From Nitrospinota bacterium (GTDB lineage: Bacteria; Nitrospinota_A; UBA7883; JACRGQ01): 50,156 nt of DNA. The stretch lies in the NCBI GenBank assembly GCA_016194375.1, contig JACQBU010000026.1, forward strand, positions 1 to 50,156, in the 5' to 3' direction. The notes beneath the pieces were generated by a model that was not told where the DNA came from, made no database searches, and was given only the letters and a program-made list of their open reading frames with translations. The translations under genes were made by a program, and so were the position numbers. This document shows positions 16,118-17,338 of this stretch, piece by piece. Every line of letters begins with the position of its first letter. The stretch's first letter is position 1.

Positions 16118-16414
16118 TTAGCAACAGCCCGTATTTTCCGCTTTGGTTCCGCAACCGCAGGAGGGCTCGCCGCCCGAAATCATCCCGCCTATCAGTGCGG
16201 AGGCGCAACCGACCCCGGAATCCACCCTGATGGCGTCAAAGGCGCAATTCAGGGCGCACGCCCCGCACTCCATGCAAAGGTCTTTGTCGGTTATGACCGC
16301 CTTCCTGTCGCCGATCACGTAAACTCCGCGCGGACAGACCTCGGCGCATACGCCGCATCCGGTGCACTTTTCGTCGTCAAGCTCAAGCGTGGCCGTGTCG
16401 CGAAGGTATTTCAT
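16118..16414 (-). CDS. hgcB: HgcB-type 2x[4Fe-4S] ferredoxin (mercury methylation partner)
   Basis: 98 aa. It has two CX2CX2CX3C motifs (CTGCGVCAEVCP, CMECGACALNCA), an extra Cys in GVGCASAL and a C-terminal …NTGCC. Its ATG overlaps the stop of the hgcA-like ORF (ATGA at 16411-16414). Confidence 0.85.
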   Translation of the reverse strand: MKYLRDTATLELDDEKCTGCGVCAEVCPRGVYVIGDRKAVITDKDLCMECGACALNCAFDAIRVDSGVGCASALIGGMISGGEPSCGCGTKAENTGCC

Positions 16415-17338
16415 ATCAAACCGAACTCGCCGAGTTTGAACGCGACCAAAAGCGCGAGTGAGAGGACTGCCCCGGAGAGGTAAACCGGCAGGGCGAACCT
16501 CAGCTCCTTTTTCACTCCCGACATTCCGGTGAACGCCGTCGAGCCTGTGAACTGCAGGGCCAGATACGAGCTTGCCAGCGGGAAAAAGAGGAACGCGAAA
16601 ATCTGAACCGACCGGGCGGCTTCAAACAGGCCCGAATACGGGGAGGCCGCCGCCAGCACGACCATGCCGGCCAGCCAACCCTTGACCGCGAACGACCTCG
16701 ACGGCACGAGGGTTAGAAACAGCGGGAGTCAGGACGAGCCGGTCAAGAATCGTGAATTTGACCTCGCGCATTTCCTTCGACGCCTCGTACTTGGCCCCTA
16801 GGTAGGCCGGGAGGTCCTCCGCACGCACGGGCCCGAAATAAACGTTGAACCCGGTCAGCTTTTTTACGACGTGCCCCGCCACGCCCGGCGCCCCCAACTG
16901 GGGAACTATCAGGCGCCTGTGGTCCACGACGTTTTGAAGTCCGGCCTCGGCGACCCTTTTGGCCAGCTCTTCGGTTCCGAACGTCCCTTCCCCGGCCGCG
17001 CACCAAACGTTTATCCCCTTGGTGTCCAAAACGAGTATCCACGCGCTAAGCCCCTTGAGCGAGCGCCTTAGCTTGTCGAAGCTAAGCTTGTAGTTCGCGC
17101 TTACGAAGACGTCCGACAGTTTGTCGGCCGCGCCGAGCGCGTACAGGCCGGGGGTCACGGAGTAATGCATCCGAAACGAATTTGAGAGCCTGCATTTCAT
17201 CTCCCCGACATGGTCGCTCAATTTCCAATCGGATTCCGTCCTGGCGACGGTTGCGCGGCATTCATCCTTTTGGGCGCGGTTCCGGCCCGGGCTTGTAGGG
17301 CCGCAACAGGACGCTCCGCCGCTATTCATAAAGGTCAT
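16411..17338 (-). pseudogene. hgcA: HgcA-type corrinoid protein (mercury methyltransferase) with interrupted reading frame
   Basis: The N-terminal ORF (17338-16622) carries …YKLSFDKLRRSL…LVLDTKGINVWCAAGEGTFGTEEL…IVPQLGAPGV…, the HgcA cap-helix region. The membrane domain (…PSRSFAVKGWLAGMVVLAAA…LQFTGSTAFTGMSGVKKEL…) continues in a different frame (16707-16411). The frame break lies around 16690-16725. Confidence 0.8.

Follow-up and report, generated by a model that had tools for sequence, protein, structure and literature searches.

In HgcA, which binds a corrinoid, a Cys of the cap helix serves as the lower ligand of the cobalt, and the protein transfers a methyl group to Hg(II). The cobalt is re-reduced by HgcB, a ferredoxin with two clusters and C-terminal cysteines. 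Activity also depends on the membrane domain of HgcA, with its five helices. The HgcA/HgcB pair of Pseudodesulfovibrio mercurii (Desulfovibrio desulfuricans) ND132 was reportedly described by Parks et al. 2013. Here we analyze an hgcA-hgcB pair on the minus strand of contig JACQBU010000026.1 from Nitrospinota bacterium (assembly GCA_016194375.1); the 50 156 nt stretch examined, positions 1 to 50,156, is called the window. The locus is a true hgcA-hgcB mercury-methylation gene pair, a known system, in an uncultured Nitrospinota-affiliated bacterium. We consider it probable that this is an hgcAB operon whose hgcA is a null allele through a single recent 167-nt deletion, and that the unusual Glu ending its cap-helix motif is unrelated to the breakage.

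The membrane domain of HgcA consists of five transmembrane (TM) helices, and the published model of HgcAB shows TM1 and TM2 packed around helix 4, the central one (PMC7305189). The window locus shares with ND132 a corrinoid domain with the NVWCAAG cap helix and the cobalt-ligand Cys (Cys93 in ND132), a C-terminal membrane domain, and, directly downstream, an hgcB whose product has two [4Fe-4S] motifs, CMECGAC and a pair of C-terminal Cys residues. It differs in that its motif ends in Glu rather than Lys, TM1-TM2 are deleted, the frame is broken, and the host is uncultured and Nitrospinota-like. ND132 HgcA cut after residue 166 or 187 lost methylation, according to the passage of PMC7305189 that cites Smith et al. 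2015; like the window allele, these mutants have a corrinoid domain without a functional membrane domain, but they were engineered in a distant species, whereas the window carries an apparently natural 167-nt deletion and a 33-residue nonsense tail. Intact relatives with the Glu variant are P0001 (encoded by L002, from Logan assembly SRR15058747), P0003 (encoded by L001, GCA_041643075.1) and the HgcA of L112 (Nitrospinota bacterium NC_groundwater_1032). These share the NVWCAAGEGTFG motif with the window; P0001 and P0003 also share 84-87% protein identity and the gene order cytochrome c-hgcA-hgcB. They differ in having all five helices in one frame (361-363 aa). The CFeSP large subunit of the acetyl-CoA pathway (AcsC / CdhE; PDB 2H9A, 4DJD) has the corrinoid fold in common over about 125 residues (E 6e-9), but lacks the cap-helix Cys and the membrane domain and has N-terminal [4Fe-4S] and TIM-barrel domains; a search of a PDB copy with the window HgcA detected only such subunits and no HgcA structure. 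HgcAB-like fusion proteins (e.g. Pyrococcus furiosus), which gave no methylation in culture (PMC10087281), likewise combine a corrinoid domain with ferredoxin motifs, whereas hgcA and hgcB are separate genes in the window.

The window hgcB (16118..16414, minus strand) encodes an intact 98-aa 2x[4Fe-4S] ferredoxin that scores 115.5 bits over the full length of the HgcB model NF040864 (cut-off 99, E 7e-34). It carries two CX2CX2CX3C motifs (CTGCGVCAEVC, CMECGACALNC), an extra mid-protein Cys70 (GVGCAS) and an ...SCGCG...GCC end, and these motifs align with the L001 and L002 counterparts. Directly upstream, hgcA is in two minus-strand pieces. The 5′ part (16724..17338) encodes the corrinoid-binding domain and the first nine residues of TM1; the 3′ remnant (16411..16723) encodes TM3-TM5 in the frame that hgcA originally had, which no longer matches that of the 5′ part, and its stop overlaps the hgcB start in an ATGA at 16411-16414. 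Mechanical calling gives open reading frames (ORFs) of 238 aa (16622-17338, minus strand, containing LDTKGINVWCAAGEGTFG) and 98 aa (16411-16707, minus strand, GTG start, containing LQFTGSTAFTGMSGV). The 238-aa ORF matches positions 1-174 of the HgcA model NF040863 with 273.7 bits (E 2e-81), by itself just below the cut-off of 275, and the 98-aa ORF matches positions 231-321 with 66.9 bits (E 1.6e-18); positions 175-230 are unmatched in both. With the frame repaired, the window HgcA scores 340.3 bits, against 378-383 bits for intact relatives. On the HgcAB-like fusion model NF043039 (cut-off 285) the repaired protein falls below at 178.6 bits (range 175-179) and intact relatives reach up to 189 bits. 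On the acetyl-CoA-pathway gamma subunit model NF003195 (cut-off 306) it scores 66.6 bits, with only positions 322-446 of 450 aligning, and intact relatives 59-67 bits. Pfam gives only the generic CdhD family and Fer4 domains for the two products. The preliminary description, made from the letters of the window, had proposed the gene pair; the curated models for both proteins agree with it, HgcA passing its cut-off after frame repair, and no CFeSP-like placement emerged. The ATGA coupling and ferredoxin features that it listed are read directly in the sequence.

Searching a large protein collection with the joined hgcA halves returned thousands of HgcA matches, the best of which (P0001, 361 aa; P0002, 367 aa; P0003, 345 aa as called) all exceed both window pieces together. 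P0003 probably begins earlier than called (MRAP...); an ATG in the same frame, 48 nt upstream (L001 3244-3291), would give it the MSS...SCCGP N-terminus common to P0001 and the window. The product of the window 5′ part is 87% identical to P0001. In the protein alignment one block is missing from the window, between LVLTP and LVPSRSFAVKGW. At the nucleotide level, alignment against L001 and L002 shows a single 167-column gap, bordered by CTGACTCCC and CTCACCCC, and no other indel within hgcA; neither half has any additional stop codon or indel. The minus-strand junction (...CTGACT/CCC/GCTG..., 16724..16727), placed by the alignments with relatives and by BLAST of the contig L253 described below, reads ...GTCCTGACT CCC GCTGTTTCTAACC..., with CCC at 16726-16724. 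In intact relatives the left edge is GTYCTGACTCCC-ATGGAG, encoding V-L-T-P-M-E, and the right edge is TTYCTCACCCC-GCTK, encoding F-L-T-P-L. The edges of the deleted block form an imperfect direct repeat, TCCTGACTCCC / TCCTCACCCC, with 8/11 bases matching in register and an exact CCC at the end, and both copies encode L-T-P in identical codon phase. The 167 nt lost are 56 codons minus one base and so shift the frame, whereas an in-register crossover would have removed 168 nt and kept it. The 5′ ORF continues for 33 nonsense codons past the junction (AVSNPRAVEVVRGQGLAGRHGRAGGGLPVFGPV; 16622..16723, minus strand, stop at 16622-16624), while the original frame has a TGA exactly at the junction. 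An exact 38-nt junction search of species-representative genomes and a 40-nt 3′-flank pattern search of JGI metagenomes gave no match. Among all 252 loci fetched, BLAST with the window locus matched L001 and L002 (83-89% identity) and L112 (71%) and no others; none of the three has the deletion.

What the deletion removes was mapped on an AlphaFold2 model of P0001, built with 93 homologues (mean pLDDT 86.3, pTM 0.77). The model has C-terminal helices at residues 194-224, 232-259, 269-288, 295-318 and 326-357, in agreement with the five helices of PMC7305189. The deleted segment corresponds to P0001 residues 203-258, which in the model comprise TM1 bar its first nine residues and essentially the whole of TM2. 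Kyte-Doolittle plots find five hydrophobic segments in P0001, none in the window 238-aa ORF, whose nonsense tail also lacks any, and only the last ones in the 98-aa 3′ ORF. The five-helix domain on one polypeptide is consequently absent from the window HgcA as written, TM3-TM5 being in another frame. The preliminary description had put the frame break at about 16690-16725, with the corrinoid and membrane domains in different frames, about three helices left, and about two missing rather than a single base; the break falls at the edge of that interval and the other particulars hold, the missing helices being TM1 and TM2 on the model.

An intact allele exists on an otherwise identical background. 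An exact-protein look-up of the window HSP20 returned one contig, L253 (SRR12113409_473 of Logan assembly SRR12113409, 2331 nt); the same look-up for HgcB, the 238-aa ORF, both HNH proteins and the phosphoglucomutase-like protein found none on record. Bases 158-2331 of L253 are identical to window 16724-18897 at 2174/2174 positions, and bases 1-157 are the TM1-TM2 coding DNA missing from the window. The encoded HgcA fragment is the same as the window HgcA for 202 residues and then runs on as MELIPALRSYAIFAVSALLVFGLTPSGVAFGKAWANGRPVLLLGFAAVFAGA to the contig end. The extent of the deletion, its junction and the existence of the intact allele are thus established by sequence comparison. Because an identical background with the segment still present occurs in another public assembly, the deletion would be very recent, and the short HgcA is not an evolved, distinct architecture. 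Three readings of L253 remain: the deletion is too recent for substitutions to have accumulated, both alleles segregate in one population, or the window contains an assembly error. L253 ends about 10 nt before the right breakpoint, a poor fit to a simple two-allele bubble at k = 31. This end may reflect chance at low coverage or a branch in the assembly graph of that sample.

The sequence of events we propose starts with one deletion, probably by strand slippage between the short imperfect direct repeats, that would have removed TM1 and TM2 and shifted the frame. Translation would then yield a soluble corrinoid domain followed by 33 nonsense residues without a membrane segment, and TM3-TM5 would be left untranslated. 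The sequence upstream of the GTG at 16707 shows no purine-rich ribosome-binding site, and TM3-TM5 are therefore probably not made from that start. Translational coupling to hgcB would be lost as well, because ribosomes would now terminate 208 nt upstream. As the window allele is the natural equivalent of the ND132 truncation mutants, loss of function is predicted, and the expected phenotype is an absence of mercury methylation.

Codon changes private to each of three lineages (window, L001 and L002) were counted. In hgcA these were 15 nonsynonymous and 24 synonymous on the window lineage (approximate dN/dS 0.22), against 5 and 22 on the L002 lineage (0.08). The difference is not significant (Fisher p = 0.11) and gives no sign of long decay; relaxed selection on the window hgcA, suggested by the excess of amino-acid changes, was rejected for this reason. 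These changes pre-date the deletion, since L253 shares them. On the window lineage hgcB has 5 nonsynonymous and 11 synonymous changes (0.13) and hsp20 has 4 and 11 (0.10); by these counts purifying selection of an ordinary kind acts on hgcB and the rest of the locus.

The cap-helix motif NVWCAAGE is encoded at 16988..17011 (minus strand), with the Cys113 codon at 17000-17002 and the Glu117 codon, GAA, at 16988-16990. The cobalt-ligand Cys in NVWC113AAG is present, and its column is invariant across the 93 homologues. With Glu as the last residue, the window does not match the full high-stringency motif N[V/I]WC[A/S][A/G/S]GK. The consensus hgcA recovery protocol accepts six high-stringency cap-helix motifs, all ending in Lys, and treats other variants as having no tested isolate (PMC10087281), by implication leaving no cultured Glu-variant organism tested. 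No paper in the library searched contains NVWCAAGE, and searches with the run and assembly accessions likewise gave no match.

NVWCAAGE occurs in 7 of the 120 best homologues, namely the seven closest (P0001-P0006, P0008). The codon is GAG in L001 and L002 and GAA in the window, so Glu has been kept across a synonymous change. A degenerate DNA pattern for NVWCAAGEGTFGT was run on species-representative genomes and JGI metagenomes. It matched 39 of the former, in both Bacteria and Archaea (complete listing), including Desulfocapsa, Deferrimicrobium, Syntrophales, Chloroflexia, Treponema, Aminicenantes, Brocadiaceae, Methanomicrobiales, Methanolinea, Bathyarchaeia and the Nitrospinota metagenome-assembled genome (MAG) closest to the window, and at least 120 JGI metagenome contigs. 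The matching Lys pattern gave at least 120 matches and a protein-based scan more than 568 HgcA loci; as a rough estimate, Glu is a minority state of a few percent of HgcA. A neighbor-joining tree of 311 sequences contains 12 maximal pure-Glu clades and requires at least 10 changes by parsimony, counts that are indicative only, the tree being crude and the Lys sample biased; in it the window belongs to an eight-tip Glu clade nested among Lys-variant HgcA. Nearly all Glu-variant genes continue for about 250 residues after the motif, and 119 of the 138 unbroken-frame Glu-variant ORFs have a recognizable hgcB, with C-terminal cysteines, within 500 nt downstream. Judging from this distribution, this HgcA clade normally carries Glu and keeps it by selection; the residue recurs in the family and is unrelated to the breakage. 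The preliminary description had counted the change from Lys to Glu as an oddity of the locus; its reading of the codon stands, but the residue is not peculiar to the window, being found in all seven closest intact homologues and in the 39 species genomes.

Six other Glu-variant hgcA ORFs leave the frame early (L099, L124, L165, L171, L214 and L227; 6 of the 144 with a complete 3′ end), against 0/72 Lys-variant ORFs in a biased sample, a difference that is not significant. These six may be pseudogenes or assembly errors. An 842-aa ‘HgcA fusion’ in L045 / L094 (CP070770.1) was discarded because its ORF reads through a scaffold run of Ns. Candidate compensations for the Glu were also rejected. 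At alignment position 83 of HgcB, Lys occurs in 68/119 partners of Glu-variant HgcA and Glu in 40/66 partners of Lys-variant HgcA (L094-L252 vs L003-L082), but one or two large clades drive this charge swap and the clade of the window lacks it. Differing HgcA columns were set aside because relatives of the window are over-represented in the Lys sample, and C-terminal cysteines seemingly missing from HgcB partners of Glu-variant HgcA proved to be an alignment effect.

Several observations weigh against a recent null allele. The one strain-identical sequence known carries the intact allele and ends near the right breakpoint; the deletion junction was seen in no other collection searched; the loss is one base short of an in-frame 168 nt, such that a single-base error in the C run would turn it into a clean 56-residue deletion; the prediction of lost function comes from mutants of a distant species; and the non-significant excess of amino-acid changes, common to the intact allele, is uninformative on decay. 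The first two are also what would be expected if the deletion were an assembly or consensus artefact, or a minor variant, and the organism had an intact five-helix hgcA identical to the L253 allele, as are the six early-breaking Glu-variant ORFs, which show that such breaks are common in MAG and metagenome assemblies. We think this unlikely, though well within consideration. The flanking repeat, with 3 exact bases (8/11 imperfect), is far too short to collapse in k-mer or overlap assembly, and no genes are broken elsewhere in the window: those checked are full length, the neighbors have lengths equal to L001, and ORFs are long with high GC at third codon positions (GC3) throughout. Replication slippage typically yields microhomology-flanked deletions of such size, and the junction has that slipped-strand signature. 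On these grounds we favor a biological deletion over an assembly error; the most likely reading of the window hgcA is a dead allele, of very recent origin, in a known system.

A deletion that is real need not be null if the protein could work with three helices, either because 168 nt were in truth lost and the frame kept, the extra C being a sequencing error, or through a +1 slip at ACU-CCC-G. The loss of exactly 56 codons minus one base agrees with this, as do the L-T-P repeats in the same codon phase, between which in-register recombination would stay in frame; removal of a two-helix hairpin would, on the model, preserve the orientation of TM3-TM5; both hgcA halves are free of other lesions and hgcB is under purifying selection; and the junction has a CCC-N, a known type of +1 slippage site. 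We nevertheless regard it as very improbable, and a real short allele that makes a working three-helix HgcA, by 168-nt recombination or +1 slippage, as marginally less probable still. All 138 Glu-variant and 72 Lys-variant unbroken-frame ORFs sampled have 225-270 residues after the motif, the lost helices are those packed around central helix 4 in the published model (PMC7305189), the sequence as written is frameshifted, and an intact allele in an identical background leaves no time for selection on a short form. It would be just as surprising if this were not a mercury-methylation pair at all, and instead encoded a corrinoid protein of the acetyl-CoA pathway or an HgcA-like paralogue that does not methylate, with the Glu marking another function. 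The Pfam match is to the CdhD family, the motif is missing from the Lys-ending high-stringency list, and by implication no cultured Glu-variant organism has been tested (PMC10087281). Set against this, the repaired window protein and its intact relatives score 340-383 bits on the HgcA model but only 59-67 bits for CFeSP, aligning with its C-terminal domain alone, and 179-189 bits for the fusions, far under both cut-offs. The cap-helix Cys, the five-helix domain of the relatives and the adjacent canonical HgcB are all present, and the Glu clade nests inside Lys-variant HgcA on the tree.

The threonyl-tRNA synthetase of the window shares 84% identity with its counterpart in a groundwater MAG labelled Nitrospinota and 72-80% with those of Nitrospinales-labelled MAGs; the closest MAG, L112, has intact Glu-variant hgcAB. 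Gene order in L001 is bioB, hsp20, cytochrome c, hgcA, hgcB, hexapeptide transferase, phosphoglucomutase-like, glmS. The window has the same order and protein lengths, the flanking hsp20, bioB, hexapeptide-transferase and phosphoglucomutase-like genes included, except for an HNH islet of about 1.3 kb between hgcB and the hexapeptide-transferase gene. This low-GC islet (14846..16084, plus strand) holds two HNH nuclease genes (14846-15247 and 15323-16084; Pfam HNH and HNH_2), one of whose products has weak similarity to a phosphorothioate-DNA restriction enzyme. GC is 0.43-0.52 in region 14700-16100, against about 0.6 around it. At the same site 3′ of hgcB (window 14772-16117), L001 has only an 8-nt spacer (4629-4636) with nothing inserted and L002 (2920-4412) a different islet, with a 62%-identical HNH gene and a Dcm-like cytosine methylase. 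By this comparison the site is a small variable islet, with no functional link to hgcAB seen. Rfam and tRNA scans of the window found no RNA gene, and hence no cobalamin riboswitch.

Upstream of hgcA in the window, L001 and L002 is a mono-haem c-type cytochrome gene (17556..18035, minus strand; PF13442 and PF00034). The nuclease islet and this cytochrome neighbor had both been named in the preliminary description, and the Pfam matches and GC profile confirm them. The cytochrome is far more divergent than the genes around it, with 36 nonsynonymous and 13 synonymous private changes on the window lineage and 60-66% identity to the L001/L002 proteins, where HgcA has 84-87%; the differences cluster in the first 70 residues and the CxxCH haem motif is kept. 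The cytochrome c-hgcA spacer (17339..17555, minus strand) contains an element of about 160 nt (core 17428-17453, containing GTCATTGCGAGCGTAGCGAAGCAATC) that has a single copy in the window, lies in the same place in L001 (3060-3160) and is absent from L002, where the spacer measures 53 nt. The element resembles a small insertion or a REP-like sequence.

The hgcAB system itself is well known, and both oddities of this locus have ordinary explanations. A survey based on gene presence would class this genome as a potential producer of methylmercury, which as assembled it probably is not, and the window illustrates the need to check length and membrane domain in hgcA calls. Of residual interest are the uncharacterized Glu variant, excluded by current filters, and the possible co-existence of a functional and a null allele in one population. 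If intact and deleted alleles do co-exist in an otherwise identical background, they would be a natural test case of trait gain and loss. If the three-helix protein were functional after all, the TM1-TM2 hairpin would be dispensable and a minimal membrane anchor for mercury methylation would be defined. NVWCAAGE appears to be a recurrent variant kept by selection, yet it is discarded by the consensus high-stringency motif filter. If Hg is methylated by Glu-variant proteins, methylators are being under-counted in current surveys; otherwise, the Lys that ends the motif would be a functional determinant.

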